DNA of 58,864 nucleotides from contig NMRA01000039.1 of NCBI GenBank assembly GCA_002633005.1, positions 1,308,140 to 1,367,003 on the forward strand, in the 5' to 3' direction. This document shows, one piece after another, positions 280 through 58,864 of the stretch; the first letter of the stretch is position 1, and every line of letters begins with the position of its first letter. This stretch comes from Phoronis australis (lineage: Eukaryota; Animalia; Phoronida). The notes under the pieces are model-generated. The model saw only the letters and a list, made by a program, of their open reading frames with translations. It did no database searches and had not been told where the DNA came from. The position numbers and the translations under genes were made by a program.

Positions 280-890
280 TTGCTTATGGTTTTGCAGTTG
301 TTTGGATACAACAAGGTGTGGGCGATGCTGTCTCATTTATAAGTGAATTTAAACAACGATGCTTTGATATTGACATCCAGGATTGGAAAAACAATATTTT
401 TTCTCAATTTTTAGATGTTTATAAAACAGTTAAATGTAACTTTGTAGTAGAAAAATACGCAACATCTTTAGAAAATAGACTTCATAGAATAGCCCTTGCA
501 AGGTTTAGATGCTCCGCACATTCATTAATGATTATTCAGGGAAGGTTCAGTGGATTTGACAAAGACAGAATATGTCCCTGCTGTGACAGTGGGAAAGTGG
601 AAACGGAATTCCACTTCCTTCTCGAATACAATTTATATTCGGATTTACGAGTGCGGTTTTTACCAAGGTACGATAAGGTGGAAGATATAGTCTTCAGAAA
701 TTTTCTACAGACTCGTGACTTAAATGTTCTGAGAAAAGTTGCTAGATTTTTAATTAATGCGGAGAAACGCCGAAATGAATTCCTTGATATGAATTAATTT
801 AGATTTGAAAAATTATTGTACTCTCTTTGTGTTATATATTGTAATGTGGGCCGGAGGCCTGTTACATGAAATAAACCTACTTAATAATAA
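280..890 (+). mobile_element. 5'-truncated non-LTR retrotransposon 3' end (RTE-X-like ORF2 C-terminus) in a YME1L1 intron
   Basis: ORF 318-797 reads FKQRCFDIDIQDW...LARFRCSAHSLMIIQGR...RICPCC..GKVETEFHFLL, the Cys/His C-terminal motif of LINE ORF2. It is followed by AATAAA (~870) and an (AAT)n-like tail. Clade assignment is from recall. Confidence 0.75.
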
Positions 891-1344
891 AATAGAGGGA
901 TAGTTGAATTTGGTTATTAAGTAGAATAGATCTAGAACATCGACAAAATCTTGGAACGAGATTTGCAGCTGTATTGATTGTTAGTTTTATGTTTCGTAGT
1001 TTCATAATTTCCGTCATGTGTTCATTTTGCCAATTAACTGTGTGTAACAATTCTTTTATTTTACTGTTTGCCTCAGAGGAGAAGTTATGACTCTTGTCTT
1101 GAGAATGACCACTTGGGTTTTTAGTTATTCCTGAATGTTGTTCTGTTAAATCTTTTATAAAGAAAGAGGACAGTTAAACTTTGCCTATTTGCAATTTAAT
1201 GTACACTCCAAAATTGGACAAAATTCAAATTTTGTGTGAAATTTTTGCCAAAATGTAGTCAAATTTCAATTCTGATCGGGGGCAACAGTTGCCTATTTTA
1301 AATTCCTTGTTGTGTTTAACGTACGTTCCCCTGTGTCCTTCCAG

Positions 1345-1471
1345 ACATCTTTTGTCCCCGAGAAAGAAATTTATAACAAGAGCAAGTCTCAACTATTGGC
1401 TGACATGGATGTAGCCATGGGCGGACGTGTTGCCGAGGAGTTGATGTATGGCTCTGACAAAATTACCACAG
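1345..1471 (+). CDS. YME1L1: YME1L1 coding exon (peptidase M41 domain)
   Basis: ccag|ACA...ACA G|gtaaag. Translates TSFVPEKEIYNKSKSQLLADMDVAMGGRVAEELMYGSDKITT, containing the FtsH/YME1 MGGRVAEE motif. Confidence 0.95.
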
Positions 1472-1991
1472 GTAAAGTGACTGAGCTCCATCTTTTGTCT
1501 GTCTCTGAAAGAAACAACTGAAGGCTTGAATCAAAAGTTTTTGTCTTTCACTCCTGCTATGCTATACTAAATGGTGTTTTTGACTCAAGTCACTTTTCAC
1601 AAAATACCACCCAGGACCCGTGACTACCAAACTTCACCCGAGACTAGACCTGAAAATAGACGAATCACTTGTCACATTTCATGTAATTTTCAGGCGCGTG
1701 AATTTGTTTTGGTCAATTCTTGAGTCAAGTTTCGACTAAACATTGACTGTCACAGGCCAAGGAACCGAGATTTGACTGGAAAACTCCTCAATTTGAAGCT
1801 TTACTTGAAGGTAGCCTGGTGTCAATGTTCGAGTCAAAGTGAATGTCGGATTAAAGTTGACGTCACATTAGAGAGGTTCCCTGTGTCTATGAGGCGAGCC
1901 TATATTTTTTGCGAGTCCCTTGAGCTATAACTTTCTAAATTCAGCATTGCAGGTATCCATTAATTGCTGCTAACGTTCTGGGTTGTTTCAG

Positions 1992-2065
1992 GAGCGGGTG
2001 GTGACTTCCAGCAGGCGACGGCTATTGCTACTGCTATGGTGAAGAATTATGGGATGTCTGAGAAG
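1992..2065 (+). CDS. YME1L1: YME1L1 coding exon
   Basis: ttcag|GA...AAG|gtgagt, phase-compatible with the previous exon. Translates (G)AGGDFQQATAIATAMVKNYGMSEK, matching the GASSD...GMSEK region of YME1L. Confidence 0.95.
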
Positions 2066-2151
2066 GTGAGTGCTGGGCAGATGGAGAACAAAATTAATGC
2101 AGGTTGTACTGGGAACTAAATCTTACTGATGTGGTTCTTATTTGTGTGCTT

Positions 2152-2300
2152 TTGGATGAGTTGTGTTAAGCCAAACAAGCAAAATTGGTTCTGGTCTTTG
2201 ATGTGTCGTGTTAGGCCAAAAAAGTGAAATTGGTTCTGGTCTGTATCCATTTGGATGAGTTGTGTTAAGCCAAAAAAAACAAAATTGGTTCTGGTCTGTA
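2152..2300. repeat. short imperfect tandem repeat, ~3 copies of ~45-50 bp
   Basis: Recurring ttggatgagttgtgttaagccaaa...aaattggttctggtct within the intron. Confidence 0.75.
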
Positions 2301-2753
2301 CCTCGACTCATTTCCAGACCTGCGCTCATTGAATAAAATATTTCCGTCTGCATCAAATTCTGCATAGGCTGCTCAATTTTACGTAAGTTATGGCAGGCGA
2401 GGTTTGAAACGCTATGATTAGCCAAGTGATGATTAAAAAACAGATTCCGCATCAGTTTTGCTCAGAACCCTAACCAACTATGCTTTATTGACTTCAGGAG
2501 GTATTTCGTTTTTTTAAATTTTGATTGCCTACTGCTCTCATCATCAAAGACTAAGCGGTGGTGTTTGAAGAAATTCAAGATGTTGGTCTGATTAAATTTT
2601 CAGTGGTCATTTAGATTGCTTATTGTTTTCTGGAATTTCCTTTAATCTTGCCTCTTGTCTTTGAGACAGTGTGAATCATTGATACGTTCTATCTTCTTAT
2701 TGAGTCGTTTTCTCAGCATGATGATTTGACTGACCCTTATGTCTTTTGCATAG

Positions 2754-2873
2754 GTCGGTGTCCGCGTGTTCAATGGTGACCCTGTCGACAGTGGGCTGTC
2801 CATGGTCAAGGTCAATGAGGTTGGACCGTCAACTACTGAGCTGTTGGACAATGAAATCAAACGGTTGCTACAA
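2754..2873 (+). CDS. YME1L1: YME1L1 coding exon
   Basis: gcatag|GTC...CAA|gtgagt, 120 bp, phase 0. Translates VGVRVFNGDPVDSGLSMVKVNEVGPSTTELLDNEIKRLLQ. Confidence 0.92.
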
Positions 2874-3419
2874 GTGAGTTCCAGTAGAGCCCGAGACTTG
2901 TGACTGACATCAAAAACTTGCTCTTTGTCCTATTATGCATTGTTTCCCATATCTCAGTATTGTGTTTGGGCAAAGTGTTGGTAAGACAAATGGATGGTGT
3001 AAAAAGATGACTTCAATTTGTAAATACCATGCTGAACCATCGTCGGAAACCGTCTTGGTTCATGTTTTGGACTGTGGGAGGCGCTTTGTTTCCTTTCTTT
3101 AATATGGTGAGTTAGTTCTCCAAATAAGCTTAACACTCGACAGAATGAAGTTCATTCACGTTGATGGCTTCAACGTGAAGATTTACTATAACAGCAGTTA
3201 ATAGTTGCGGAAATCATAGGAAGAGCTGAAATTTAAGCAGCCAAATGAAGGTGGTATTTAGCCTCAATTTTTTACATCTAAACACTGTCAATATTTGGTG
3301 TTGTCCAGTTTTACCACAGTAGAAGTCATCACTCAGACACATTTTAACAAAATGTGCCCCAATAGTGAAATGACATCCTGTGAAATTTGACTTAAGACTT
3401 CTAACTTTGCTTACTACAG

Positions 3420-3566
3420 GAGTCGTATGATAGAGCTAAGGCTATCTTGAAGAATCATTCTGTGGAACACAAGGCCCTGGCCCAGGCGCTGATGCGCCAT
3501 GAAACTTTGGATGCACAGGAAATTAAAGCTGTTATTGAAGGAAAGATTACTGTCGAGAGTGTGTAG
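3420..3566 (+). CDS. YME1L1: YME1L1 last coding exon
   Basis: tacag|GAG. Translates ESYDRAKAILKNHSVEHKALAQALMRHETLDAQEIKAVIEGKITVESV*, the YME1L C-terminus. Candidate AATAAA signals at ~4134 and ~5622. Confidence 0.95.
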   Translation, partial: ESYDRAKAILKNHSVEHKALAQALMRHETLDAQEIKAVIEGKITVESV

Positions 3567-4231
3567 GAAACGAAAAAAAAGAATACGTCAATCAGGCTAT
3601 TGTGTCAACTGGCACATATTTTTCAATCTTTTTACAACATGGCCACTTATACTTGGTATATGCTATTAGGGACTTCATGGCACTGAATATGACATGTAAG
3701 TAGAAGTGATCTGATGTTTCTAATCTTGCCAATATAAGATGTGTCCGTTGATCGCTAAATACGCTGTGATTGGCTGTTATCCGACGTCTACCTACATGTC
3801 GTGTATCGTGGAACAAATGACTATGGCAGTTGCTTTCGTACAAAAATTTATCGTACAAGAGGTATGTTTTACAAAAAAGGAGTTTTTGTAATCAGGTCTA
3901 GACGTGTTTCTTGTGCAACTCATAATAGACAATTTCTGCCATTGTTGAACATGTTTAGAGAGACATTTTTCTAATCCAGCTTAGTCAAAAAGCTATGACT
4001 TGGTGTTTGTTGTACAATTTGTTTGTAAACTTGGGCTGTTTTGAGCACAATAGATGCTGTTTCAAGGTAAACATTTACAAAGATTTTTCAGGACTCTGTA
4101 CTGAGAATGATGAGTTGCTGCAAACAGATAAATAATAAACAGACACATGGCATCGTATCAGAACCTCCATTTTACTTTCCCGATAAGAGTACATCCTCCT
4201 TTTTGGTGCTTCAAAGTTTAATGGAAGCCAC

Positions 4232-4389
4232 CAGTGGCGGATTTAGAGGGGGGTCAAAGGGGTCATGCCCCCCCCCTAAAATTCTCCCAGTTCCATTTGG
4301 CAGTTCAGGGATGCAAAAGTCTGACAAGCAAAATCTTGGCTAATACTCTGCCCTGCCCCCCCTAGCTCAAAATCCTGGATCCGACCCTG
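4232..4389 (+). mobile_element. MITE family A (CAGTGGCGGAT...ATCCGCCCCTG ends, hAT-like, 5-bp TSD)
   Basis: Terminal inverted repeats with TSD gccac/gccac. Homologous copies at 11003, 32518 and 49360. Confidence 0.85.
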
Positions 4390-5230
4390 GCCACTGTTCT
4401 CTTGACTTGACAACTAGATCAGTAGAAGCTTGCCTACAAATTGGCATTTATTGTGCAGCTTGATTTAAAAGTCAACAGTTGTGAAGTTAACATGGTGGTA
4501 TTCAGAATACCATTCACATCTCCGTATTCTTGAAATATACATTCTGTTGCGTAAACGAGAAATGATGGTATTTATTTTTGATTTTTTAGCATTGTTCAAT
4601 GCATTCAGATTCAATGTCTAAATGTCTACTATTGACCAGTACCGAGACTTTGTGAGTTAAGAAATGGTTGGTTGTAATGCATTTAATTTTTTTAGTCCAT
4701 TGTGAGATTCGATATTCACTTTGTGGTGTTAATGAAGCGTTGATCCTCTTTTTGTTTGTTGAATAGCAACAGCATTGACAACATGGTGCATGCATTTATA
4801 CATGTCACCAGATGGTGATACTGTCTGGTCCGTGAGTCAGCTCGCCCAGAACTGCCAAACAACATATTGCGAAAATCATCATTTAGGGAATCTGCTCAAA
4901 AACAGTTTACAAGAATGGGAAGCTAAAGAGATGAAGCCTATTTATCAAAAGCAGAAATGGATTATGTTGAAAATTCTGAATATTGAGAGAATTTGATTAG
5001 ATCTAAGCCAGATAATTCAAAGTATTAGTCTGTTTGCAGCTGATACATTTGCTTCTTTAGCGCCACCTAGTGAATTTCAAGCTCACAATGGTGTCTGAAA
5101 TTTTACAGCTACAGTAGTGAAACAAGGAGACATGGAACACAATGTGGACCATTTTAGACAGTGAATCAGAATGTGTGATCAATACTCTTTAAACAAAACT
5201 GTTGTAAATGTCATGTAGTTACAATATCTT

Positions 5231-5504
5231 GGGGTCTGTTTCATGAAAAGTGACTCAAGACTAGATTCCTAAGTTTGACGTTACGCAACTCTTTCTGAAA
5301 AATTATTAAATCTCACTCGTGCAAAAGTCCAGTTTCTGAGAATATCCACATAGCTGTTAGTTAAAGAGATAATTTCTATTAATTATTTCTAGACTGTGAT
5401 GCGCTCGTAATTAATTGGATAAATCTTTTTGAGCAATTGTGAAGTGGGAGTGCAAGACCCAATATCTGTCTTAAGCGTTACGCCACTTTCACGATGCTGA
5501 CCAC
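5231..5504. mobile_element. degenerate Harbinger-like MITE
   Basis: Imperfect TIRs ggggtctgtttcatgaaa / tttcacgatgctgaccac. Confidence 0.4.
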
Positions 5505-5791
5505 AGATTTCCTTTCTAGAACATTCTGTTCGATGATAGTTATTGCAAAGTTATGTGTAATAAATTGTAAACTTGATCATTGTCTAATGGGTAGTTGATT
5601 TGTTGAAAGATGTTGTTTCACAATAAAATATTGTACTGAGGCAAATGTTTGTTGGTGAAAATTTTGTATTGAAATCTGTCAAGTGCAAAGAATCAGAAAA
5701 ACGTTTGATGGGATTTGACACGTGTTCACTTTTGTCTCGCAGAAATGTTAGAATCTAAATTGTCTATTCAGCTCACTATTGCCGATCTTGT

Positions 5792-5991
5792 TATAATTCT
5801 GAGTGTGTCTGGTTTTCACATTCTATAATTCTGAGTGTGTGTCTGGCTTTCACATTCTATAATTCTGAGTGTGTGTCTGGTTTTCACATTCTATAATTCT
5901 GAGTGTGTGTCTGGTTTTCACATTCTATAATTCTGAGTGTGTGTCTGGTTTTCACATTCTATAATTCTGAGTGTGTCTGGTTTTCACATTC
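5792..5991. repeat. minisatellite, 6 copies of a 32-34 bp unit
   Basis: Unit tataattctgagtgt(gt)gtctggttttcacattc; copies start at 5792, 5824, 5858, 5892, 5926 and 5960. Confidence 0.97.
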
Positions 5992-7426
5992 AACAAATTC
6001 CGTTGCATTTCATCATTTATTGTTTGCCTCTTCTATGTGGACAAATGATTGACAGTGAAGCAGACGTTTGGCAGATGCAAGGGGAGATAAAGACAAGAAA
6101 GAGTAGAAGACAAAAGTAATCGATAAAATGCCATTTTTCCGTCACGACAGCTAATCATGTTAGCAGCAACAATTTCTGGTAGTGGCAAATTTATAATTTA
6201 CCGAAAGGCTTAGACACCTTACTAACTTTCCAGTTTATTTCTCTTCATTCTGAGTCGTGAGGGAAAACCGCGCTGATGAATTTGGCTTCTACCCAACCTG
6301 AGCCACCATGACGATGATTTCCAAGTCATTTTGGTGTGTGCTTTTTCATTTGATCATGGATGACACAGGAGGGTAAACTACTGTAAATACTTCATTTTGG
6401 AATGCAATATTTTATATAACAGATGAGAAAATTTACATTTTGTCCTTTTCCTAAAAAAATGCATTTTATTTCATGGATATTCTGCTAAGCATGGTTTGTA
6501 TGAAGTAGCTGTCACCAACTAACATTTGGTCAAGTTTCGAGCATTACTAGCTATGGGCAAGACCAAGGAAAATAGAAAAATGTCAGTTTTGGGATTGAAG
6601 AATTTTTAATGCAATGATTTATGGACAAACCTCAAAGAAACAAAAAAATTCTGGATAAAAGTACACACTTAAGAGTCAGAGTGGGAGACTTAACCGTATC
6701 TAACACCTGAGGGACATAAGCTCCAAACAGTATTGCGTGTGTACGTCTAGAAAATCTAAACTAAAAACAATGAAGAAACTCCTCGCTTGGTGCGTTTTCC
6801 TCAGGCGGTACACTAGGACAATAAAACGGACCAAATGCGCTCAGCTCAGCTGTGGCGTGTTGTATATTAAGTAGTTAACAAAAATATTTTGTTTGGAGCG
6901 CTTGCAGGCAGAGCAGTTCACACAGGAAATGCCAACATTTCTAAAACGTGGGACGAAGAAATTGAATATTTGATAAGAGTCGTCACATTTACATTACGCG
7001 AGACCAGAAGGTTAATGAGAACCCAGGAAGCTAATAATTTATGGTAAAATACTTGCATTATGGTTCATCGTCAAAAAGGTAGTTGAAATGAGTAAACATC
7101 AACATACGGAGAATGTAATTTAGTCTTAAAGTGCATTTGACTGTTTCTTTTTCCTTATTGTTTCCATGACAACTGCCTTGTAACCTCTCAAAATTACATG
7201 AAAAACATAAACTGCATTTTGGAGTTCAAAATTTCGTTATAACTGGGATGAGCCCATTTTGTTTCGTGGTCGACCGTAGGTAACCATACAGCTGCAACAG
7301 ACATGTCATTGGAAAAGGCACCTTTCATGTCTTCGTGTGTTTGAATCTTTCACTTTTCTCCTTACATGAGGTTAGAAAATCACGACTTCCTAAAATCGCA
7401 TAGAGGTGGTGATGTACTAACATTAT

Positions 7427-7614
7427 GGCTAAAATTAATTGGTCGGTTTACACCAACCATTTGCCTAGTACTTTAATTGGCATGGCGTTTCAGCCGGTCA
7501 CGTCTTCTAAGCATGCTATAACACCTGAAGATGGTCGCAGAAACGACCGACTGAAACATCGTGCCAATGTAAGTAGGCTAGAAATTGGTGTAAACAGACC
7601 AAGAAATTTTAATC
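7427..7614 (+). mobile_element. Penelope-like pLTR relic: long inverted repeat with a decayed minimal hammerhead motif (7522-7563)
   Basis: Arms ~7427-7508 and ~7541-7614 are imperfect reverse complements. Core reads CAC-CTGAAGA-T-GGTCG...CGACT-GAAAC-ATC-GTG. Confidence 0.55.
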
Positions 7615-8745
7615 GTGGTATTACATAATCATATCAATCAAGAACAAAATCAATAACTAAAAGAGCGCATAATGCGTACCAAATTGAACAGTTTTTGCCA
7701 TTAGTATAAAGCCTTTCTTCTGAAAGGAAAAGTTAATGTCACTCAGTGAAAAAGGACAGGTATTTATACCAGATGTTTTTGGTTTTCGTTTCACTGGGAT
7801 CGAGTTTTAATGGTAAAAAGCTTGTCTATGTTGCGGCTTGAAGTGGCCTTAAAAATGTCACTGAACCTGGAACAAATATTGAAACATGAATAATTAAGTA
7901 CGGCAGGTTGGGTCAAAAATGTTGCCCTTGTTATTTAAAAATTTGATATGGTAACAGAATTACAATTTCACACAGAATTGAATAATCACTATTTCCTGAA
8001 AGCAAGGGTGTATATAATATAATATAATATAATAATTATTGATTTCTATAGAACTGCGTCTTTATTTTTCATTCCTAGCCATAACTATTCTTTAAACGCA
8101 TCACTTGCCTGCAAAATATGCAAGTTATTTGAGACAACTTCAAACTTTTGTTACCCATTTTCAAGCATTTTGGTTTTTGATACGTTCAGCAATTTTAAAC
8201 ACCGATTACAGATTCATTGGTATATCAAGCACGCTTCTGGTCTAAGGCTGAGGGAACCGTTTCTCAGATTTTTTTTATTTTTCTTCCAATAGAAGATATG
8301 AAGACTTAGGTTATTTTAAAAATGATGGATAATATTTCTGTTGTTTAAAAGTAATGAAAACCCCTAAGACTTGCGTATTGGCAGTAAGAATAATATGTTC
8401 AAATGCGACCTCACTCGTATGTTCACAGCAAAAATGCAGTTTTCACAAAAGTGGTGGTCACATGAATTTATAAACAACTTGCAACTTTTTAAGGCTTGAG
8501 TTAAGACTGTCCAGTCATTGAGAATTCAAAAAATGTAATATATTTTTATGGGTTTACAACGGATAGCAAAACAGTTTCATGAAACTTGAAAGAACTTCAT
8601 GAAGGTTAAGAATTATCTCACCATGCTCTTTCCCCGGACGCTATTACTTGTTATTTCCACACATTCAGTTGCACCAAATTTTACAACCCCAACCCCCTAT
8701 GCCAACCTCGCGCTAAGGACCTGAATAAGTAAACTAAACTGATAG

Positions 8746-9290
8746 TTGTTTTCAAACCTCTTTGGAAACTTTCCAAATTCCAATATGCTGAGTAAACTGA
8801 AGTCACCCATCCCTTTATTGAACAATAGCAATGTGGTTTATAAGGTTGATTGTGAAACCTGTAAGGAATTCTATATCGGCCTCACACAGAGACGCCTCTG
8901 TGACAGGCTGAGGGAACATCACACCTCAGAGAAAAGCAGCATATATAGGCATTGTGTTACCAACAGTCACCAAGCCAATTCAGTTAGTACTATGCTAATA
9001 AAGAATTACTGTACATTAAAAAGTCATTGGCCATTCAGAACCAGCATGCTACTGATTCTCTGAATAAAATGCAGAGCTCAGTGACCCTGCAACTATAATG
9101 ATCACCAGCTACTGACTTTTTTCCCTATAATTCTCACTTCCCTTTATGGATGTTACCTGAGCTGTATGTTGGCACTTGCTGTCCTTTGTAAATAATTATC
9201 CTGATAATGTCTAATGAATAGATGAAACGTTGATTGAACATGAACTTTTTTATATGTGTGGCGATCGTCCGGTTTTTAAATTGACCAAAC
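8746..9290 (+). mobile_element. Penelope-like element 3' fragment: frameshifted GIY-YIG endonuclease plus pLTR with decayed hammerhead (9198-9234)
   Basis: NSNVVYKVDCETCKEFYIGLTQRRLCDRLREH, then after a frameshift LLYIKKSLAI...SLNKMQSSVTLQL* (stop 9098). Downstream is ATC-CTGATAA-T-GTCTA-atgaa-TAGAT-GAAAC-GTT-GAT. Confidence 0.85.
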
Positions 9291-9301
9291 AACTTATATA
9301 C

Positions 9302-10500
9302 CTTTCTTTAAAAATAGCTGTCCATTTTCAAAGGCTTTGTTCTTTGTCTCCGATAAAGAAAGTAGGCTTTGACAACAGATCTGCACTGGGCAGGAAGATT
9401 TTACTGGTTGGCTGCAGTCAACTGCTCAAAATCAATTTTTGTTCATTCAGAGACGGTTGCAGAAGCGATGCAATTCTCCTCTGCACGGCACTAGCCCTCA
9501 AACCTAAAAACCAAAGGTCAGGTGAAAACATATTTCTAAGTCAACGTGTAATACATTTCCGGACGACATAGGATATGGAGTAAACAAATAGTCTAATGGA
9601 TATTTGTCACGTACCCTTTGGGCTTGGATTGTAGTCTTACCTCACTAACCAATATCCAGTTGACAACATAACCATTCAGCATTGATTGATGTAATTGTCA
9701 CTAATAAACCTGTTAGAAATCATTCCAAACATTAATAATCCTGCTTTGATGTATGAAAAGATCCCGAGTGCTACGTCAAGTATCGTAACACACATCACAA
9801 CAATGACTAACCCTACTGGCGACTGCCGCAAAGACGACATCGGCCAGTACCTCAGTTAACAGGCATCAGTATTGTAAACATGGAATAATCGTTAAAATAA
9901 TCACAAAGCTTATCTTTCTATAAAGTTATTCTCACTTCCTCTCGTAGAAGCTCCCTTTTCACGCAATCTCAGATTTAGTTGTCACGGCTGAAAGCCATTT
10001 CACCACGTATTAAAGGGCTCGCGAAATCGAGGCTGCTTAATCTATCACCGCTAGTACACGCGCGCCCTCTAGTAATGTAAAGATTGTCACACTGTCAGCA
10101 ACACGAATTACTGGATTGGATTCTTTTTCAAGGTGAACTTTTCATTTTTTAAAGTTTTATTTTACGAGTAAATACTGCAGATAAGATTTGGCCTATATCT
10201 CAGAAAACTGCATCTGGGCAACAGGTGAATATTGCACGAATACTTTATTATAGATTAATAATACACACGCATGCACGCGCACACACGCATGCACACACAC
10301 AAACTTACATGGGCAGCACATCATAGGGGGCTGGGGGCTATAACCCCTCTCTTATTTCAGTGCTGCGCCACCCATGGTCACATAGGTGGCGCACTGTAGG
10401 GGGCTGGGGACTATAGCCCCCCACTTTTTTCAGTACTGCGCCACCCATGACTTACTTACCTAAAAAATTACGCGAAAGTTACGTTAACACACTTGTTTTA
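9302..10500 (-). ncRNA. putative spliced non-coding (or 5'UTR) transcript; exons ~10500-10460, 9709-9641, 9503-9302
   Basis: Minus-strand splice signals AG|gtaagt (10460), tttctaacag|G (9709), GAG|gtaaga (9641), ggtttttag|G (9503) and AAAG|gtatat (9302). Stops occur in all frames of exons 2 and 3. Confidence 0.35.
10308..10449. mobile_element. MITE family B (CATGGGC...CCCATG), a dimer of ~69-bp units with 5-bp TSD
   Basis: TSD actta/actta. Internal cccatg-gtca-catagg junction. Second copy at 30996-31122 and a partial copy at ~29584-29623. Confidence 0.75.
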
Positions 10501-10800
10501 GACCCTAGGCCTCAGGAAGTTGGCGTGCGCTTGCTTACATCCGGTATACCGAGGTCGGAACTTAACCTGGTTGCCGGGCCTCACAAGCTGACGTCACGGA
10601 GTGCTTGTGAAGGCCTAGGTACAGGGCACTAGAACGATGGTTTTCATTGGCTGTCAGCTGGCAATTTTTAACCAGGAAGTTTGCTCTGCGCATGCTCACA
10701 TCCGGTATTACGTTATCAGGTCGCTAGGTGTCGCGAGAGTAAAAGTTAATTTGCGACTGGGTCGCGTTTGCGGTCGGGGGGAACTCTGGTGAGATAGCTG
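10500..10800. promoter_or_regulatory. CpG-rich housekeeping-type, possibly bidirectional promoter
   Basis: ETS-like CAGGAAGT x2 and ACATCCGG x2, CRE TGACGTCA (~10590), ATTGG (CCAAT), NRF1-like TGCGCATG and TCGCGAGA. Outward-facing splice donors at 10459 (-) and 10789 (+). Confidence 0.6.
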
Positions 10801-11002
10801 TTTATATATTGTGATATTACCAATAAACTGTTACAGTAGTATAATCATGTAATTATCGATTCCTTACTAGGAAAATAAACCTGAATTAACAATGGCTTCA
10901 CTCTTTTCACTTGGCATTTTTTCAGTTTCATTGTTTGAACGCTTTTTATGAATTGAAAACGTCCCGAAATCCTGGATCCTCCCCTGCTGTAAGATCTTAC
11001 AG

Positions 11003-11170
11003 CAGGGGATGATCCAGGATTTTGAGTTAGGGGGTAGGGGCAAGAGCAGAGTATTTTTCCCGTCAAACATTTGCACCCCCAAGCTACCAAATGGAATCTG
11101 GGAGAATTTTAGGCAGTGCCATGGCCCCCTTGCCACACCACACCCCCCCCCTTCCCCCTATCCGTCTCTG
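11003..11170 (-). mobile_element. MITE family A copy
   Basis: Reverse-complement homolog of 4232-4389 with TSD tacag/tacag. A second family-A-like end faces it at 10967-10986. Confidence 0.8.
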
Positions 11171-11742
11171 TACAGTGTTACAGTAGATACTGCAGGCACC
11201 CAATTTCCACCACTTAGCAGCCCACTCAATATTCATCCCCTAGAACACCACATTTTTCGACCCTTCAGGTAGCTACAATTCTCAAGCTACACCCCTCACT
11301 TTGTTTACATACTAATTTTTTCTTCCCCATTTCCCTTTTTGAGGTGGGACCCCACACAACTTGAAGGTCCTAAGCCATTCAGATCACCTTGGGTATATTC
11401 GGGGCCTCAAATTTCTCATTGGAGGTGAATTTAACCTGCGTGATTATCAAATTTAGTGGAGAATGATTGGCCATAAAGTTCGAGCATGCACTGAAAACAT
11501 TAACTTCCAAGGGCATCCAGAACACCTCGGGTGTTTTTGTAACCTCAAATTTCACCTAATAGGTGACTTCAGTTTGCCTATTGTTGCCAAGATTGAAAAT
11601 CACGTGACTTGCCATATTTTGGATAACGTTCATCTCCGAGAGGAGATTTGAGGCTACGAAAATACCTGAAGTGTCTAAGAAAAATTTGTAAATGTAAATA
11701 GGGAAATAGCAGAGGGGCTCCAGATGTTCCGGGGGTAAATTT

Positions 11743-13152
11743 TTTTTTTCTTTTTTTTGTCAAAAAGTTTTATTGTTATCGTAATGCAAATACAATAAAG
11801 CCAAACAGTATAAACATTCACGCACACAGTCACGCTCACATTCATACACAGGGGGGCCATTGGTTGTATGTAGTGTAAATTAAAATAAAGGTGCTAGAGG
11901 GGCCCATCGTTCCTCGAAGTCGAGATACCTGCACTGGTTATAGTACATAACCTTTTCTACTTTGTAGTAATCAAAAACAGAATGTTTAAAAAGTGCAAAA
12001 CATGGTTCTACATTCTGAAGTCTTTGCTTGTGTATGTGGTACTTGCCTAAACATAAAAGTAGATTTATGATTTTTGGTCCATTAAAGGAGCCAAAAATTA
12101 CGTAAAAATGATCAAGTTTCATATCAATTCCGCANNNNNNNNNNNNNNNNNNNNNNNNNNNNNNNNNNNNNNNNNNNNNNNNNNNNNNNNNNNNNNNNNN
12201 NNNNNNNNNNNNNNNNNNNNNNNNNNNNNNNNNNNNNNNNNNNNNNNNNNNNNNNNNNNNNNNNNNNNNNNNNNNNNNNNNNNNNNNNNNNNNNNNNNNN
12301 NNNNNNNNNNNNNNNNNNNNNNNNNNNNNNNNNNNNNNNNNNNNNNNNNNNNNNNNNNNNNNNNNNNNNNNNNNNNNNNNNNNNNNNNNNNNNNNNNNNN
12401 NNNNNNNNNNNNNNNNNNNNNNNNNNNNNNNNNNNNNNNNNNNNNNNNNNNNNNNNNNNNNNNNNNNNNNNNNNNNNNNNNNNNNNNNNNNNNNNNNNNN
12501 NNNNNNNNNNNNNNNNNNNNNNNNNNNNNNNNNNNNNNNNNNNNNNNNNNNNNNNNNNNNNNNNNNNNNNNNNNNNNNNNNNNNNNNNNNNNNNNNNNNN
12601 NNNNNNNNNNNNNNNNNNNNNNNNNNNNNNNNNNNNNNNNNNNNNNNNNNNNNNNNNNNNNNNNNNNNNNNNNNNNNNNNNNNNNNNNNNNNNNNNNNNN
12701 NNNNNNNNNNNNNNNNNNNNNNNNNNNNNNNNNNNNNNNNNNNNNNNNNNNNNNNNNNNNNNNNNNNNNNNNNNNNNNNNNNNNNNNNNNNNNNNNNNNN
12801 NNNNNNNNNNNNNNNNNNNNNNNNNNNNNNNNNNNNNNNNNNNNNNNNNNNNNNNNNNNNNNNNNNTGAGACTGTCAATTTCCTGTTGTGCATTGTCCAC
12901 TTTAGTGTTCAACCCAGTCATTTGCGTTTGAATGGTGTCAATCTTCTCTAGGACACCGTCAATTTTCGCACTCAAACTAGCCTCAACTCGCAAGATTATT
13001 TCCTTAATTTCTTCAGACATCTCGTCAGTAGTACTCACAGAGTCCTTTCTAAGCGTGTACGGATATGGTTTTGGCGGCATAACATTCAAAACGGCTCTGC
13101 TTTTGCGGAGAGATTTTTAGCCGTCCATGCCGGTTTGACCGTGACCTTGACC
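11743..13152 (-). mobile_element. L1/Tx1-clade LINE, apparently full length, interior lost in the assembly gap
   Basis: 15-bp TSD tccgggggtaaattt (11728-11742 and 13153-13167) and a poly(A) tail at ~11743-11758. ORF1 starts MPPKPYPYTLRK...coiled coil (13080-12867). ORF2 ends VIFG...INLLLCLGKYHIHKQR...KVEK...FEERWAPL (12134-11880). Confidence 0.88.
12135..12866. other. assembly gap (732 N)
   Basis: Run of N; ORF-track entries spanning it are artefacts. Confidence 1.
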
Positions 13153-17519: not shown

Positions 17520-17744
17520 TTAAGTAGTAGGCCTACCAGAGCCTCTTAAAAAATGTTCATCTTCAAAGTGTCTTAAACAAGTGTATAAAGTCATATTGCT
17601 GAAACAACTGCCATTCACGTTGACACAAGAAATAAGCTTTTGTTTTGGCCACAGCCGATTATTGGGTCTTCGGATGGTATGAAAGATAACGCCTTTGCAT
17701 TTCGCGTGTGTAGCCGAACAACCGGCCACACAGCAGCCGACCAT
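17520..17744 (-). pseudogene. THAP zinc-finger relic of a decayed DNA transposon
   Basis: MVGCCVAGCS...VIFH...W...TCLRHFEDEHF, a C2CH THAP signature. Motif ccggaaattgcaccagaaaatttag (17766-17790) is inverted at 14848-14872. Confidence 0.75.
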
Positions 17745-17794
17745 GATTAGCAGACAACGTACTTGCCGGAAATTGCACCAGAAAATTTAGCCAG

Positions 17795-17945: not shown

Positions 17946-18645
17946 CAGGTGTCGCCAGTGAATAATGACGCAAGGGCTTGTGCGTAAGATCACAGATTTC
18001 GTCCACTGAACGTATACGGAGTTGGCGGTCCATGTACTTTAGTCTGTGCTTAAAGTAATACAATTGAAGCAGTGTAAATACCACTCAGCATGCAACCAGG
18101 ACTCAGTCGTAGGCCCTAACACCTGGAACAGGACAGTTCTGTCTCAGTTTTCAATTGCTAAGATACATGTATATCGTCTGCAACACAGGCACCGATTCCT
18201 CGCCAATATCAAACATTGTTGTCACTTGCCATCCATGCTACAGAATCCGCCAGCCAGCCAGCTAGCTGTATCAACAGACTGTCGTATATTTAGTATACAG
18301 CTTTATACCAAGGCTACAGAATCCGTAGAAATGCGACAACGTACCTGCAACAACGCTACCACAGACATACATGTATTCGCCTGAGCTGTCATCAACAGTG
18401 GCACTTATAACATCTTCGTAAAAGCAGACAACGTGTAGGCTACGCGCACCGGTCAATGACCTAGTTTCATGAAATGTGTGCAGCTACCCAATGAGGATTT
18501 TACAGTGTTATAAATTTTCTTGTTATTTATTTATTTTCGAAATATGATACAAGTTCAATGCACGATAACTGTCGTTTTCACACTGTTGTAGATGTGCTTC
18601 CGGTGAATTATATGAGCCTCTGTTAGCTACTCGCTAACGGGCAAT

Positions 18646-18718
18646 TGCCTATTAGCTGAATGGTTAGCACGCTTGCCGGGTTTTATGGGGGTCGCGGGTT
18701 CGATCCCCGGGTCGGGTA
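18646..18718 (+). promoter_or_regulatory. tRNA-like type-2 Pol III internal promoter in the 5' LTR
   Basis: A box TAGCTGAATGG (18653-18663) and B box GGTTCGATCCC (18697-18707), 44 nt apart as in tRNA. T-arm cggg/cccg. No proper anticodon arm. Confidence 0.85.
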
Positions 18719-19032
18719 ATCTCGACTATTACTACAAATGGCGTAGTCGGCAGACGGATGATCTACCGATGAAGCACTGCCAACTAGTACCCACGGACCT
18801 CGGGACAGCGCGCCTGGAAGGTTCCAGGAGTCAAGGACATGTATGAGAGACGACCTTGTGTTCACCTGTGTTGTGGTGGTAAAGGTACCAAGGCACGTTG
18901 ATGACCTGTATGCAAGACATCCTGGTGTTCAACTTCCTGTCGCGTGCCCGTTCCGTAGGAAAGGGGGGAATGTTGTAGATGTGCTTCCGGTGAATTATAT
19001 GAGCCTCTGTTAGCTACTCGCTAACGGGCAAT

Positions 19033-19105
19033 TGCCTATTAGCTGAATGGTTAGCACGCTTGCCGGGTTTTATGGGGGTCGCGGGTTCGATCCCCGGGTC
19101 GGGTA
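19033..19105 (+). promoter_or_regulatory. tRNA-like type-2 Pol III internal promoter in the 3' LTR
   Basis: Identical to 18646-18718. Confidence 0.85.
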
Positions 19106-19639
19106 ATCTCGGCTATTACTACAACACTTTTTGTCAATTTCATGTAATAAACCGTGTAACATTTAAAACTGTTTTCTTTTACTACGTAGAGTAAGTTAGC
19201 AACAGAACGCGCACGTACATACACAACAGGTCAGGGTAAAGGATTTATAAAATGCCGAAAGAAAACAAAAGAAACTCACGAATTCGACGCGGAATAATGT
19301 CTCGTGGGATACACCACGCTCGGTACGTTTTGTGTCAGTATATCTACGCCACACTCGGTACGTTTTGTGGGTTTATGAACTACTATGTAGGGCTAGTAAC
19401 TGATTTTCAATCCACCAAATTTATGTCGGAATCAATCGGAAGTCACTTCGAGTTTCTCATTGCTCTAGAGAGCGCCAAAATGAAAAGTCTACAATTTGTT
19501 TTTAATGGCCCCGGCTGTAGATACAGCTAGGCTGGGCCAATAAATGGCAAATGCCTGTCAACGTATCTAAGTGTCATGTTCTACATACAAAGTTTAAGAC
19601 GCAAGTATCGCAAGCAAGTATATAATATTTAAGGAACTT

Positions 19640-32672: not shown

Positions 32673-34804
32673 TGTTTTGTCCAGTTAACTGAAATTGAAC
32701 TCTAAAACGAGGTTATGCTGTGGACGAAAGAATTAGGTGTTTTAACTTTAAAATTCAACTTGGTAGAGATTGATATTTGAAAAATATAACACATGAAATA
32801 GACGTAATTATTAAAACCAAGAAAGCAGAATTGATGGTCATATAATTTTTATTTTCAATTGCGAGCCTGTTTTTTATCGCAATCAAAATATATATTTAAT
32901 AACATCAAGTAATATTTCAGATCAATGACAAATCAACTGTTAGTCCCGGTAGTGCTTACCTCACCAGGACCTAGGCTATGCTTGAAACTAATAGGCCTAC
33001 TCTTGATCAACAAATTAAACCAGATGTGACTAATTGCACATGATAGCAAAATGCTATGAGCCACCACTGTCGAATATATCTTCAACTCGTCAATGAATAC
33101 GACCAGATGGCCTGGTTCGTGTAGAAAACTTTTTATCAAGAATTTATTAGAAGAAGCGTAACCCTGCATTCAGAATGATACCTAATCCGCAATTTGGTCA
33201 TGTTTACTTTTCATGTTTCGAACCTAGTTTTCCGGAAAAAACTTATATCCTTTCGTCAGACAACACTTTGGTGCATTGACTTGTTCTTTAACTGTATTTT
33301 TCTACGTCTCTGTGGTTAATTATTGACACATTTTTTAAGATTTAATATTTAGGTTGGACTCCAAAGACCAGCCATTTAACTCATGCAATGTGAATTTCCG
33401 CTTTGTTTATCGCAGTGAGCCTCGATTTGGATTTTAATGTCTACCGCGTGAATTGGGTCTATAAGAAAACTTCTTTTCACCTTTGAGCCAGGTCTTCATA
33501 TGACACTAGCAACTACTTCTTGATAAATTTCTTCTAGGTGCCTAAATGTTCCTGATGATTTGCTGGTGTGGTTTCAAGGATGCAAAATTAAGAAGTCTTC
33601 ACTCTTAGGTTGTGTGACTGCCATTAAAAAGTGCCCCAAAAGTAAGTACATATTACAACAATTTTCTGGATTTAGGGTGTTTATCATGAAATTTACAATT
33701 TTCTTGATCGACTTTTATCAGTGCACACATTTAATTGACAGCGTTACTTATTGGAGTTTTTCAAAAGTAATCATACATGTACCTCAGTCAAAATAAATTT
33801 AAATTGTACGATCAGAAATGAAACAGTACAGACACGTTCTTTATTTTCATTAAATCAATTAATTTGGTTGAAACCATATAATTTTTGCGTACAAAAATTC
33901 CCGCGACAAAATTCCATCAGCATCAGTTTTGAAATTCGTTCTCAAAGACTGGCTCTAGGTGGAGTAGCTCAGCCTGTTCTATGACCTTTATTCATGGTTC
34001 GGTTTTCCACACGTGAAGATGTAGCGTATATTTCTTTATTAAGTCAAACCTGGAAAATGTTCCGTAGAAGCACCCACAAATCTTCGCGTCAGTATAAAAC
34101 GGATACGGTGAATTTTATCCCATAATGCAATAATCCAGGCTCACCGAACATTCACTTCAGTGACCGCTTTTTTGATAGAGTAACATTTTGAGCATACTCG
34201 TGAAACTCGCGATGTTGCTTGTTCATAAGTGTCTTGTGTCTAGGGAACGTAACCTTATTCAACAATAAATGATTAAATTCACTCCTGAAGGCCTTTGAAA
34301 AAAGGTTATCGGTAAATGAGATTCCTGTTTTAAAGACTGTTCGGGATAAAAAAATTTCAAGAACTGGGATAAATGTAATTATACCACAATATTAGCCTCG
34401 AATGGCCGATACAACCGTGTAATTACCCATTTAGTCATCTTTGGCGCGAACCGAGGCACATTTCGAACCCGGGCGGCAGGAGTTTTGAGTCGTCGACTTA
34501 TTACACCACTCAGCGGCTGACGTCATCATACAGAATACTTAAATGAGCACGCGCAACAATTGCATGTTCTGCCAAGGGCATTGTACTGACATTTATACGC
34601 TATGAAAAATCAGACGCACAATTTCCAATTAAAACGATATTTTAATTCAGCAAAATTTTTTTCTCATGTCCTCTCACTTGTAAATCCCCGATCTCCAATT
34701 TGAATGCGGGTATCGTGTGGTTGGGATCCTAGTTACAAAGCCGAGGCGAGTCGAGAAAGGTAGATCGATCATTGCAATGTTTCTCGTTTAGTATGCGGTA
34801 TAAA

Positions 34805-34965
34805 TAGATTATTACATGTTCTCAGTCGTTATCCCCCTTTTTAGAGCCCTCGTGGATTTAGGAGTATTATCGCCCTCGGGGCTAACGCACCTCGGGCGAT
34901 AATTCTCCAAAATCCACTCGTGCTCTAGAATACGGGGGATAAAGACTTTGTCTTGTAATAATCTA
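34805..34965. mobile_element. palindromic hairpin MITE
   Basis: Almost end-to-end inverted repeat (tagattattaca...attatcgccc / gggcgataat...tgtaataatcta), TA-bounded. Confidence 0.75.
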
Positions 34966-35939
34966 TATGTACAGTGTGTTTTTTGTTTTATCTACGGATT
35001 GAGTGAGCATTTTTTTCTACGATAAAATGCAGTTGTTGTTCGCTAAATAATGTTTGCGTTTTCACAAAAATGACCATGAGTAAAAATGAGCAATTTCTCT
35101 TCCATATCCAATTCCAATTTTAAATTAGTCAAAGTCGAAGTATTTTCCACAGGCAAGTACGTCTCCGATACAGTTGAACAAGAAGCACACACAGTGAGAA
35201 TATTTAGCAATAGATTCACGCCTACCAGTTTTATTTGTTTCTATTTCGAATCACTACAGAACTGTGTCAGTAGCATCATCTTCAAAAACTAGACCAATCA
35301 TAAAATGCGTTTTACCGCACGAAAGGAGGATTTTGGCTACTAGTTTGGAAGCGTTTTTACTTTTGAGTATTAATTTTTATTGGTCTACGACGGAACCCAA
35401 CATTTGACTATGATATCTGGCATAAGAGACTTGAACAGAAATAGGACAATTAACAGTTATTGTCGGTGTTAGTTTTTACATAATGCTATACTTTCGCCGT
35501 ATATTTCGAAGTCAATTCACCGTTTCTTTTCTACAATAGAATGTAACGATAGCAATGGTCACATTCACGAGCGGAACGAGGAGTGGGTGGAGACAGTGGG
35601 CGGGGTTACGTTTGACTGCGAGTGTACACTCCCAATCACGTGGTTGAGTCCTTCTCCGAACGAATTGCCACCAAAGTTGTACAAGAAACTCCCACCGCGG
35701 GGAATCTGCAAACGACAAGGTATACGCTTTATAGTCGCTTAGTATATCGGTGTGGGGACCTGTATTACTTGTTTGGACTGGTTATGAGGAGTAGGCATCG
35801 TCATGAGCAAAATCGGCAAAAATTCCCCGACAAGGCGTATGGTACTTTAGGAGGTCTTTTACCTCGTTACACATGACTTTTTGCAATGAAACTTTTGACA
35901 TGCACTCAGTGGAAGAGTAGTCGTTGAATGTGACCTTAA

Positions 35940-42747: not shown

Positions 42748-44559
42748 TGCAATGTAAGCAATGCGTAACATGCAAAAATGCAGACATGAAAGCTTACCTC
42801 AAGTCATTCTCCAACTAAACATTTATTTTTAAGTGCATCACCTGTGGTGTTTTCTTTAAAACCGCATTTTATTTTCAAATTGTTTTCCTGATTATACTAT
42901 CCAAACAGTTTTCTAGGAAGTCGCAACGATGACGCTGGCTACAAATTTAAATATTCACGCTTTTAATGAGACATAGCATATTTATATGCAAAAAGACAGG
43001 GATTAGCCAGCCGAGATCGCGGTCTGACTCGTTGGTCATTCAAGTTAGCGCTTCTTCTATGTTCAGACCTAGTCGAGCTTGTGTAGACTGGGTCGAGGGG
43101 ATTGTGGGCCCGTGGGGGTTTTGGGGTGTGGGATCCAGGGGGTTTAGAACAATTCGGAACCTTGGGCCTGAGAAATATCGCAGAAGGTTCAAGTTCATGG
43201 TCAAGTAAACACCCGGGCCGCTTAGCCTAAACGTACAGAGCCGAGGCGGCATACATGTACTCTCTTAGTTAGGGCTGTCGCTGTTCTCTTTTGATGTGCG
43301 GCTTTGGATTGGTGCATGCGCGCATAAGTTCCCACACTTGAATCTCTGGAGCGCATGTTACATTGGAAGTAACATATGTGAGTGACAGGTGACTCTACAT
43401 ATGTGCGTGCTCAGCCCTTGGAAGAAGGACTTGTTAAATGTGTCTCGTTGGTTCCCTTCGTGTCCCCTGAGGGGGTAGAGTACACGGAGGTATCCTATTC
43501 AACAAAACACGTTTTATCCCTGGTTGATGTAACCTCAGCAGTCATTTTTTACATGTAGATTTACAACGAATAAAGAAAATGGCGGATTGTGAGCGATTTT
43601 AGCCTTGTCAACACATTTGCGAACCAATTTTTTCTCTTCACTGCAATATTTCGTTTCTGAAGTGATGTTTAAGAGCAGCGTGGCCAATTTAACCGGTATG
43701 TTATTCACACTGGGTAAAAACAAAGGCAGCAGCATAAAAAAATCAGTGGCAGTACAACAGTGCACGCAGAAAAGGCCCAACCATGGCTTTCCGATTCACA
43801 AAATATTTTTCCAACACAAATATGCGTACGAACCATTTTTACCTCGGACACCTACTGTCCTAAGTATTAGAGGTATAACGCTATGTTTCAAGAGCCGTGT
43901 ACGAACTAATGGAGTGTACAAAGTGCATGTACGAACTAATAGAGGAAACACCCTGAAAGAAAATGCTTTGGCATTAATTGAAATTACATGTATACGAATA
44001 AATCCAAAAATACCTGGTAATCATTTTGAATTCTGTTTCAGTGGCAGATTATCACTCTCAATATTGCAATACATATTAGTCTGTTGATCGCGTTTCAGCC
44101 CTCTTTAAGTGAACCCATGCAGTATTATAAAAAGATGCTTTCTACCGATTTGGATCGGACAGCACACAACAGTCCGCAATCATTATGTAGGCTAAATTAT
44201 CACTTTATTCATTATCATGCCTTTATCTTAAGGTTGCGCTCGTCCAGGCAGACTTCACATGAATTACGGCGAGACGTATTACGAGGTACGTGATGGCAAA
44301 AGATACAAGTGCACTTGCGTCAAAGGACCAGATCCCGAATTAGCGGATGACACGTCCCATTCGCACATTAAATGCCTGGCTGTTTAGTAGCAAACATTCA
44401 GAGTTTTCGCATTGACTTGTAAAGAATGAAAAGAAACCATAAACAATGATGTGGAGAATGTCTGACTTTTTATGTGCTCTGAAACTCCAAAACTTGATTC
44501 GATTTGCGTAGCTGTGTGCAGCATTCGAAACAAGTGACTGAAAAATACGAACATATAAA

Positions 44560-44794
44560 AAATAATTGCAGGCGGTCTGACACACGTTGTACCAGGCGTG
44601 CGCAGACCTCGCATTTGGGCCCATTACACTGATCAACTGGAAATGTTTTTGTGCTTTATTGATATATGGTGAAAACCGAACTGAGGAGCTAGAAACCTCC
44701 TGGCTGAAGCGTTTAGCAGTGTGACCTGGTAGGACTTGAACCCACGACCTCGAGTAAAAAAAGCGGGCACTTATCAACCAGGCCACACTGCCTC
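44560..44794 (-). mobile_element. tRNA-derived SINE-like element
   Basis: Minus-strand A-box-like TGGCCTGGTTG (44785-44775) and B box GGTTCAAGTCC (44742-44732). The 3' boundary is uncertain. Confidence 0.55.
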
Positions 44795-45704
44795 CTCAAA
44801 TACATGTACGAACATAACATGCGGCTATAAAACTGACTTCCCTCACAAAAAGGATGTACTTAAGCTACTTACAAAATTCATTTATGGACAAGAGGCGTTC
44901 TGGCTATTGGTCTGTGGTCTAGTGGATGAGAGATCAAAATAACTGTGGAAAATACCCGGTATCATCGCCTTCAACTCACGTTAAAATCAAAACTGATATA
45001 CGTGTACGTAAAATGTGTTAAGAGACCGGGGTAAACATGTTTTTGTTGCGTCTATTCACCTATTTCACGAAAGCACCATCTTCCCGCGCCATCTTTAAAT
45101 ACTGATCGAAAACGAGGCACACTGATAAAACCTCGTGAGAGATCATCAGCTGGCCATGGTGTACTGTGCAGTGTCAGAACGTACCAATTCCAGTAATAAC
45201 TCGTCGCTATCCTTCCCAGGTATGTACATGTACTTAGCCACTAGCTCGCCCAGTCGCCAATGCGAGTAAAAATGGTGCTGGGCGAGTAGAAGTTGACTTG
45301 CCTGTCGCCCAGGTGGTAAGCGGATTTCAGAGCGCAAAAGCACTATACACTGTATATCGTTCCCAGATGAATATGAATAATTTTCCTCCTCCTTGTGCTC
45401 TTTTTATCATGAATTTAAGGTTCAGTTTGGTCATCGTGTCGATGCTCCGGCAGTAAAAAAACATCGGCGCAGTGCGACCCTACCGATTCAGTACATGTCA
45501 CACGTTACGCGATTCGTCAAAAAACACGGTGTGTGGTCGTGCACAAAGAATTTGTGGACTAGTCCGTAACGAAGAAAAGGGGAGAAAGGTGGAAGACCGG
45601 TCCATGTGCTCATAGCAAATGAAATACTATATTCCTTGAAACTGATTTCTTATTGTAATGTACAATGTCATTTTAGCCAAAATTATTTTATAACATGATC
45701 GTCC

Positions 45705-57930: not shown

Positions 57931-58864
57931 ATTGGAGGCACAGAACAGTTCTCACTGGGTTTTGCCCAGCAAAACCCACATCACTTGATTTGTCACCTTT
58001 TCTTCACTCTGTCAAAAACAGGATACAAAGAATGACACGTTTTCAGTTATTTCACATAAAAAGCCCTGCAGATGAGCGCAGAAACTTTATTCTCGCTTGT
58101 ATTTTTTACCCTTTCAATCCCACTGAAAACCAAGCTAGACTAAGGAAAATACGGGCAAAAAATTGCAAAATCGGCACTTTTCAACACATAAACACCACTT
58201 CCGTGCCGATGCACGACTAAAACCAACATTAGATTCTGAAAGCAAATGTTCTACAGATTCCGAAAATGTGTTCCAAAAGTACTGTTAACGAACTAGTTTT
58301 TGGCAATTCTGGCTTGTTTGAGGACTACCTAAAATCGCAGCCAATTTCTCAGTCGCTGCTCAGCAATGCACAATTTCAACCGGGGGCCACCATGTTGAAG
58401 AAGAGTGCAGCTAGAGCCGAGAAAGTGGCCTTTTTATTCTCAGCATGTTCACAATTGCAAACAATCCACATTCACTGAGCCTACATGTAATGCCCACCTA
58501 CAAAATGCCCCCAATCTTGACTACCCCAACATTTTAATATTTTGGGGAGTGCAAATTGGTCGCCGCCGCAGCCTAACTATTCAGTGCCACCATACGAATC
58601 TGCCTATTTTTTCATTAGACTATTAGTCAAAAAGGACCTGCCCATTTTTTCATTAAGCAATCGGTCGGAACGGACCTGCCCCTTTCATGAGGAACCCTTT
58701 CCAGCTGAAAATTGACCGTCGGACGGCCTTCGTCCGACGGTTGGAGTTTGCTAATTCGAACACAATAGCCCATTGAATTCAGTCCAGTTGCCTGGGCTGC
58801 TTGGTCACGTACGTAATCCTTTAATGACACCTCATTATGCCATAAAACTACGTGCCTGTCGACT

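Follow-up and report, generated by a model that had tools for sequence, protein, structure and literature searches.

A young Helenus-type retrotransposon with tRNA-derived terminal repeats in Phoronis australis

In a 58,864-nt stretch of Phoronis australis DNA (the window, whose numbering is used throughout), we find a non-coding element of 540 nt that we read as a complete Helenus retrotransposon, likely a recent insertion, likely transcribed by RNA polymerase III (Pol III), and likely primed by tRNA-Ser and integrated by the proteins of a Gypsy element. We put the probability of this reading as a whole at about 65%. Our collective results support the view that the element is a genuine young member of animal Helenus (TRIMp3) and that its family is missing from the published list. 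As a Helenus family it brings to the class a young copy, a previously unlisted primer and perhaps a new host group, and should be useful for repeat annotation; the class itself was described in 2024 (PMC10886601), where a palindrome discussed below was apparently not remarked on.

Element Architecture

The element consists of two 153-nt long terminal repeats (LTRs) with TG…CA ends (18584-18736 and 18971-19123, + strand, like all features of the element given below), separated by a 234-nt interior (18737-18970), and is bordered by the target-site duplication (TSD) ACAC (18580-18583 and 19124-19127), the right copy of which is followed by a run of five host Ts (19128-19132). The LTRs, recovered by repeat search, differ at a single base (18725 A vs. 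19112 G). The primer-binding site (PBS) for tRNA-Ser (18739-18759) begins 2 nt past the 5' LTR with 15 contiguous nt (18739-18753), and an extension at 18756-18759 brings the match to the full 18 nt if a 3-nt bulge is allowed after 14 nt. A 14-nt polypurine tract (PPT; 18957-18970) directly adjoins the 3' LTR. The interior has no recognisable coding capacity in six-frame reading, and Pfam returned no family at E ≤ 1 for its two longest open stretches (69 and 64 aa). No second copy of the element is present within the window.

An earlier note on this DNA had claimed the LTR pair with its one difference, the ACAC duplication, PBS and PPT, a non-coding interior and a very recent insertion. Each of these structural features lies where it had been placed, and the age claim stands as well. 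If substitution rates are taken to lie between 2e-9 and 1e-8 per site per year, the single LTR difference corresponds to 0.3-1.6 million years; its Poisson interval spans 0.03-5.6 substitutions, hence "young" is a fair yet loose description.

The interior also contains a weak direct repeat (18836-18867 and 18903-18934; 78% over 32 nt, E 0.32). We weighed the GCGCGC word at 18809-18814 as a possible dimer site but set it aside, since 18814 is changed in most copies.

Copies and Insertion Sites

Four public sequencing runs of the same species were aligned to 18200-19500, among them one DNA run (X1) and two RNA runs (X6 and X7). X1 yielded 1084 aligned contig pieces (209 at ≥99% identity, 356 at 95-99% and 519 at 90-95%), and its summed contig depth was 648-12178 inside the element vs. 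28-208 just outside (18332-18551 and 19124-19343), a measure that shows a repeat and is not a copy number. Moreover, in X1, X6 and X7 the loose ends of alignments fall exactly on 18584, 18971 and 19123 with mixed flanks, and foreign flanks join at 18584 in 23 reads of X6 and 22 reads of X7. The claim of a dispersed multi-copy family is thus borne out by raised depth together with varied flanks at the exact LTR ends.

Element-free versions of the site were also found. Record 11 of another run (X5) joins 18582 to 19161 via 32 letters resembling the right flank, and X1 contains a similar joint as well as three contigs leaving at 18584 into right-flank-like sequence; these versions are without all 540 nt and one copy of the target, so that the target is present once. 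Such versions represent empty alleles or, given that the flanks are repetitive too, further copies of a host repeat. At a second site, seen in both RNA runs, the left flank ends in GAAG, and in the right flank the same four letters follow an altered LTR end, which would be a second 4-bp TSD provided that both ends belong to one locus. Hence, a 4-bp duplication is directly visible for the ACAC insertion, while the further example rests on that proviso.

These data also bear on the idea that the structure is not an LTR element, and consists instead of two tRNA-derived SINE copies or a local duplication flanking unrelated DNA. Half of the repeat is indeed tRNA-derived, as are SINE heads; however, the TG…CA ends, PBS, PPT and TSD occupy their canonical places, the interior is itself multi-copy with flanks that switch precisely where the repeats end, and the complete 540 nt plus one target copy are missing from the element-free site. 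We therefore consider this explanation extremely improbable and treat the structure as an LTR element.

The copy in the window differs from nearly all other copies at six interior positions and at 18725, which indicates that it is a minor variant or is absent from the sequenced individuals. One of these differences is a G at 18753 that makes its PBS one base longer, all other aligned copies having A; we give no weight to the notion that this base was templated by the primer, because at least six interior differences, this one included, set the copy apart. Among the 40 variant rows listed of 174, eight distinct LTR positions vary and none lies within LTR positions 37-101 (hairpins, A box and T4 run), an outcome with a chance of about 1% under uniform variation for a region that was chosen afterwards. 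In the same 40 rows the B box shows one common variant, which keeps the consensus pyrimidine. A one-base deletion just upstream of the T4 run is common among copies, and a TATA-like word at 18609 is altered in 62-80% of X1 depth.

Assignment to Helenus

Animal Helenus elements are TRIMs with tRNA-derived sequence in their LTRs, 4-bp TSDs and a Gypsy-type PBS, and their boxes are described as TRGCY…YGG (A) and GGTTC (B) (PMC10886601, Kojima 2024). The P. australis element has the features of a TRIM (TG…CA LTRs, a length below about 1 kb, PBS, PPT, no coding capacity and dispersed copies) and shares with Helenus the A and B boxes in both LTRs, the 4-bp TSD, the Gypsy-type PBS and a tRNA-derived part that is neither complementary to the PBS nor likely to be a working tRNA. 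The proposed membership in this class is therefore upheld in every defining feature that can be tested. The suggestion that the family may be new also holds as far as the published list goes, given that a motif search of the PMC10886601 supplement gave no match to the element's PBS, LTR start or A box and that no family in that paper combines an LTR of 153 with an interior of 234 nt.

By eye, the LTR layout resembles that of palindrome-bearing families from bivalves (e.g., Helenus-1_MoPh, Helenus-1_CGi and Helenus-3_PiNo), nemerteans (Helenus-1_LiLo) and the coelacanth (LTR2_Lch). The Ser-primed mytilid families Helenus-2_MyGa, Helenus-2_MoPh and Helenus-2_LimFor have interiors of 226-268 nt, close to the 234 nt found here, whereas the Ser-primed Helenus families listed use tRNA-Ser ends other than that of our element.

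The element can further be set beside other small retroelements. Like Cassandra, the plant TRIM with 5S-derived LTRs, it carries a Pol III-type promoter in each LTR and LTRs predicted to be self-complementary; unlike our element, Cassandra has a 5S-type promoter (A, IE and C), a tRNA-Met PBS, plant hosts and validated Pol III use, as described in PMC10886601. According to that paper and the accessible parts of PMC7215508, Cassandra RNA begins within the 5' LTR and terminates within the 3' LTR, which leaves it with a short terminal repeat. Ajax, a nemertean element (PMC10886601), is likewise an animal TRIMp3 and, by eye, has a palindrome before an A-box-like word, but it differs in its 5S-derived boxes, 5-bp TSD and tRNA-Leu primer. 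SINE2 elements and retrozymes are also small non-coding retroelements, the former with the same promoter type; SINEs, however, are without LTRs, PBS and PPT, and retrozymes carry a hammerhead, the core motif of which is absent from both strands of our element, with no Rfam match either.

The tRNA-Derived Region

About half of each LTR had been proposed to be tRNA-like, with A and B boxes 44 nt apart and a T-arm. We confirmed these parts: the decayed tRNA-derived region (18646-18718 and 19033-19105) includes an A box (18653-18663 and 19040-19050) that fits the published description of Helenus box A (PMC10886601) and a B box (18697-18707 and 19084-19094), 44 nt apart from start to start in each LTR. 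Box pairs at 30-95 nt spacing arose in only 3 of 20000 dinucleotide shuffles of the LTR. Apart from the boxes, the likeness to tRNA comprises a 4-bp D-stem and a T-arm of four pairs plus a G·G mismatch; from the sequence, the acceptor stem is degenerate and the anticodon arm is lost, so the tRNA likeness holds for the D-arm, the T-arm and the boxes and falls short of a whole tRNA. The T-arm region is, we assume, most similar to tRNA-Ile(AAT).

A working tRNA gene in the LTR can be rejected, since neither ARAGORN nor Rfam calls a tRNA: ARAGORN found no tRNA gene in the window, and Rfam gave no match at E ≤ 1 over 2.7 kb. A search restricted to 111 nt recovered the T-arm alone, via a tRNA-clan model (tmRNA, 5.6 bits, E 0.98). 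The Rfam searches of the LTR region gave no 5S rRNA match, and among the repeats found there was no inverted match between the tRNA-like part of the LTR and the element's own PBS.

A Palindrome at the Predicted Start

Each LTR contains a 24-nt palindrome (18633-18656 and 19020-19043), which has the predicted Pol III start at its midpoint and runs into the first four bases of the A box. It is predicted to fold as a hairpin (hairpin 2, -10.5 kcal/mol) and competes for its left arm with an upstream hairpin of 8 bp and a 5-nt loop (hairpin 1; 18620-18640 and 19007-19027; -10.4 kcal/mol), which lies wholly upstream of the predicted start and whose right arm is common to both, so that the two predicted energies are nearly equal. 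The fold of 18625-18660 has a z of -2.94 (4 of 200 shuffles), and that of LTR positions 1-101 beats chance only modestly (23 of 1000 shuffles; 54 of 1000 on the minus strand). In a growing RNA, the two small hairpins are predicted to give way to one long hairpin (-22.5 kcal/mol) that ends 6 nt before a T4 run. The only runs of at least four Ts on the + strand of the element are at 18681-18684 and 19068-19071, one per LTR between the A and B boxes, and each is a candidate weak Pol III terminator.

In vertebrates T4 acts as a Pol III terminator, so that the run within the 5' LTR could lower the yield of RNA. For yeast Pol III in vitro, the accessible part of PMC9278858 reports that T4 alone gives no release of the polymerase and that a hairpin 0-7 nt upstream, though not one at 18 nt, turns T4 into a moderate terminator. 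An RNA begun at 18643-18647 would be without the upstream arms and is predicted to fold weakly (about -5 kcal/mol) before the first T4. In the transcript of the 3' LTR, on the other hand, the palindrome is predicted to pair with a probability of ≥0.9 at 9 of 10 positions; a stem directly abutting the T4 has a pairing probability of 0.0 in the fold of the whole predicted RNA.

Published Helenus and Ajax LTRs (PMC10886601 Data S1) were compared by eye, without alignment, and the fungal and some wasp entries stand outside the tally. Judged in this way, a palindrome of 22-24 nt with the same ends and varying self-complementary centres, which runs into the A box, is present in 33 of 51 bivalve, 3 of 3 nemertean, 2 of 2 coelacanth and 13 of 14 ostariophysan fish LTR entries. 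It was seen in none of the three brachiopod, two sturgeon and paddlefish, one ctenophore and one lycophyte LTRs, nor in the wasp LTRs examined. Some palindrome-free LTRs carry other inverted repeats at the same place, and bivalve families without the palindrome mostly retain a tRNA acceptor stem instead. The upstream hairpin is also common among the published palindrome-bearing LTRs. Compared with the common form, the P. australis palindrome is changed on both sides of one pair. The word of its right arm occurs at least 39 times in a motif search of the whole supplement, in which line breaks can hide matches, first in a coelacanth entry and after all fungal ones. By eye, both Ajax LTRs show a related palindrome and, between it and the 5S boxes, an A-box-like word of the tRNA type; this suggests that Ajax derived from a Helenus LTR of the palindrome type.

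The main text of PMC10886601 has no match for "palindrome", "inverted repeat" or "hairpin", and the paper does not discuss termination. The palindrome is not treated in the accessible parts of PMC13570524, PMC6934838, PMC7215508 and PMC12859917, and we found no other paper that treats it in a survey whose coverage ended short of subscription journals, figures and Repbase reports.

What the palindrome does is a matter of hypothesis, with strand transfer or the setting of the start equally possible. A joint reading, which we offer tentatively and hold to be on the whole unlikely, would make it an unreported conserved RNA element of one old animal TRIMp3 lineage and, at the same time, a start/stop switch between identical LTRs. 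Its first part would join bivalves, nemerteans, coelacanth, ostariophysan fish, Ajax and the present host in a single line of descent, as against separate births from SINE insertions; in its second part, the palindrome of this family would arm a T4 which has no effect on the polymerase in the 5' LTR. The idea of a switch between start and stop or strand transfer follows from both arms being present in the transcript of the 3' LTR only. Several published palindrome families (e.g., by eye, Helenus-1_CGi and LTR-11_DR) have no T4 run in the LTR, hence hairpin-aided termination is not the general role of the palindrome. If it is shared by descent among molluscs, ribbon worms and fishes, animal Helenus would be older or more widely transferred than proposed.

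Primer and Proposed Helper

The earlier proposal of a tRNA-Ser primer agrees with the accessible parts of PMC3299991 and PMC7449687, in which the antisense templates for human tRNA-Ser begin with 15 bases identical to the PBS. Elements using the same primer were sought by scanning for an LTR end followed by this PBS, which gave 127 loci (8 viral, at least 118 from metagenomes, in 58 of 64 parts, and 1 further locus). Most of these are chance matches; in 30 of the 127 loci listed, at least 17 nt of tRNA-Ser complement directly follow an LTR-type end. None of the eight viral-contig matches has an LTR pair or a 17-nt PBS. The listed metagenome loci include no relative of our element (the best blastn match covers 28 nt at the PBS), and, outside the PBS, the interior has no counterpart among the 127 loci except for two chance-level hits (E 0.11 and 0.42). 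When tRNA genes that end in the PBS complement were sought separately, the single match lay in coding-like DNA and was dismissed as chance.

Two intact loci examined for domains (L012 and L026) encode gag and a 1400-aa pol with the order PR-RT-RH-INT, and are Gypsy elements by that order. Together with four broken loci that have LTR pairs (L010, L038, L051 and L055) they agree with our element in PBS, LTR end, G-rich PPT and 4-bp TSD; unlike it, all six are autonomous or derived from autonomous elements, belong to other genomes and show no likeness past the PBS. An LTR pair was recognized at five loci, where the TSD is an exact 4 bp in three, carries one mismatch in a fourth and is ambiguous in the fifth. 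Ser-primed Gypsy elements with 4-bp TSDs are thus a real kind of helper, in that such elements exist in other genomes, and the Gypsy helper proposed for the P. australis element holds up only by analogy with them, through the shared PBS and TSD length.

BEL elements usually leave 5-bp duplications. A helper from BEL or from Copia, which also usually leaves 5 bp (PMC10886601), using the same primer in place of Gypsy appears very unlikely to us, as both intact same-PBS elements that were examined are Gypsy by domain order and the readable TSDs of same-PBS elements are 4 bp.

None of the six Ser-primed Gypsy loci has a B box near its LTR end. In L012 and L026 a second, partial PBS word lies inside the LTR, about 45-65 nt upstream of its end, and at two other loci (L060 and L079) a pair of B-box-like words falls within the final 70 nt of a Gypsy LTR.

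Transcription and Mobilization

The boxes suggest, from their sequence and spacing, that the element may be transcribed by Pol III; the literature that we searched held no mapped Helenus transcript. In the RNA runs (library selection not known) both strands of the element are covered and 72-75% of reads continue into other sequence, and in X6 and X7 there is no pile-up of molecule starts or ends over the element. Read-through, coverage of both strands and the lack of piled-up ends indicate that the RNA-seq data show copies inside host transcripts and are silent on Pol III.

The most serious alternative keeps the same element and Gypsy helper but supplies Pol II RNA, from the LTR or from host transcripts, the boxes being a relic or a TFIIIC site. 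We regard it as clearly the less probable course, albeit one to be reckoned with. The predominance of read-through reads on both strands would fit it, as would the T4, which lies 35-40 nt downstream of where Pol III is predicted to start. In many published Helenus LTRs, judged by eye, T4-T6 runs directly follow the B box, whereas the T4 of our element lies between the boxes; a run right after the B box should stop Pol III in the 5' LTR, before the PBS, which also speaks for Pol II. Moreover, PMC10886601 itself states that the Helenus Pol III promoter is not validated. Against Pol II RNA, the boxes seem to have outlasted the tRNA fold, the TATA-like word varies among copies, the element contains no poly(A) signal (neither AATAAA nor ATTAAA), and PMC10886601 describes the related Cassandra as using its own Pol III promoter.

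If Pol III is the polymerase, as we favour, transcription would start at about 18643-18647, in the middle of the palindrome. With a start at this place, the 5' end of the RNA would contain the right arm only and therefore remain open, and the TTTT at 18681, with no hairpin to support it, would not stop the polymerase. The transcript of the 3' LTR would include the upstream arms as well, and there the long hairpin is predicted to form, reaching to 6 nt from the second TTTT (19068). Termination would take place at this TTTT or, if the polymerase reads through, at the following T run in the flank, which for the copy in the window could be the host T5 at 19128-19132. Either end would provide a terminal repeat for strand transfer, of about 40 nt if the RNA ends at the second TTTT. 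Proteins of a Ser-primed Gypsy would then carry out reverse transcription from the tRNA-Ser primer, with the PPT serving to prime plus-strand synthesis, and the 4-bp duplication would arise on integration by the Gypsy integrase. How two identical LTRs can accommodate both a promoter and a terminator for Pol III is a puzzle for all TRIMp3, and the present element offers a compact, testable design, with one promoter and one T4 per LTR and a hairpin able to form in the second LTR only.

Surroundings of the Element

The element is bracketed by a 16-nt inverted repeat (94%; 18262-18277 and 19515-19530), which together with the repetitive flanks may represent a MITE-like host into which the TRIM inserted. 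Nearby, a 33-nt stretch (18284-18316) belongs to another abundant repeat; in DNA as well as RNA runs it is covered to very great depth, with numerous loose ends at either side.

Pfam, applied to 150 of 165 stop-free stretches of the window, returned five rows with one clear host exon (M41 peptidase). This exon (1346-1471, + strand) encodes part of a YME1L-like M41 protease, has AG/GT borders and is flanked by introns; its best match among 37 candidates is an annelid protein (81%), which fits an animal host and points to no narrower group, and no further YME1L-like exon was found among the 150 stretches scanned. Weak matches to GIY-YIG (8746-9060, + strand) and THAP (17523-17786, - strand) are probably transposon relics. 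Several dispersed repeats are common to parts of the window, and long self-inverted stretches at 7430-7611, 34798-34972 and 10967-11022 are probably MITEs. A probable SINE at about 44500-44800 (- strand), recognized by a tRNA-like head whose B box is at 44742, is unrelated to the LTR by blastn. A 38-nt satellite occupies 53652-57932 with about 105 copies in two blocks, accompanied by direct repeats of 755 nt (at 52995 and 57934) and 240 nt (99%; at 51932 and 54004).
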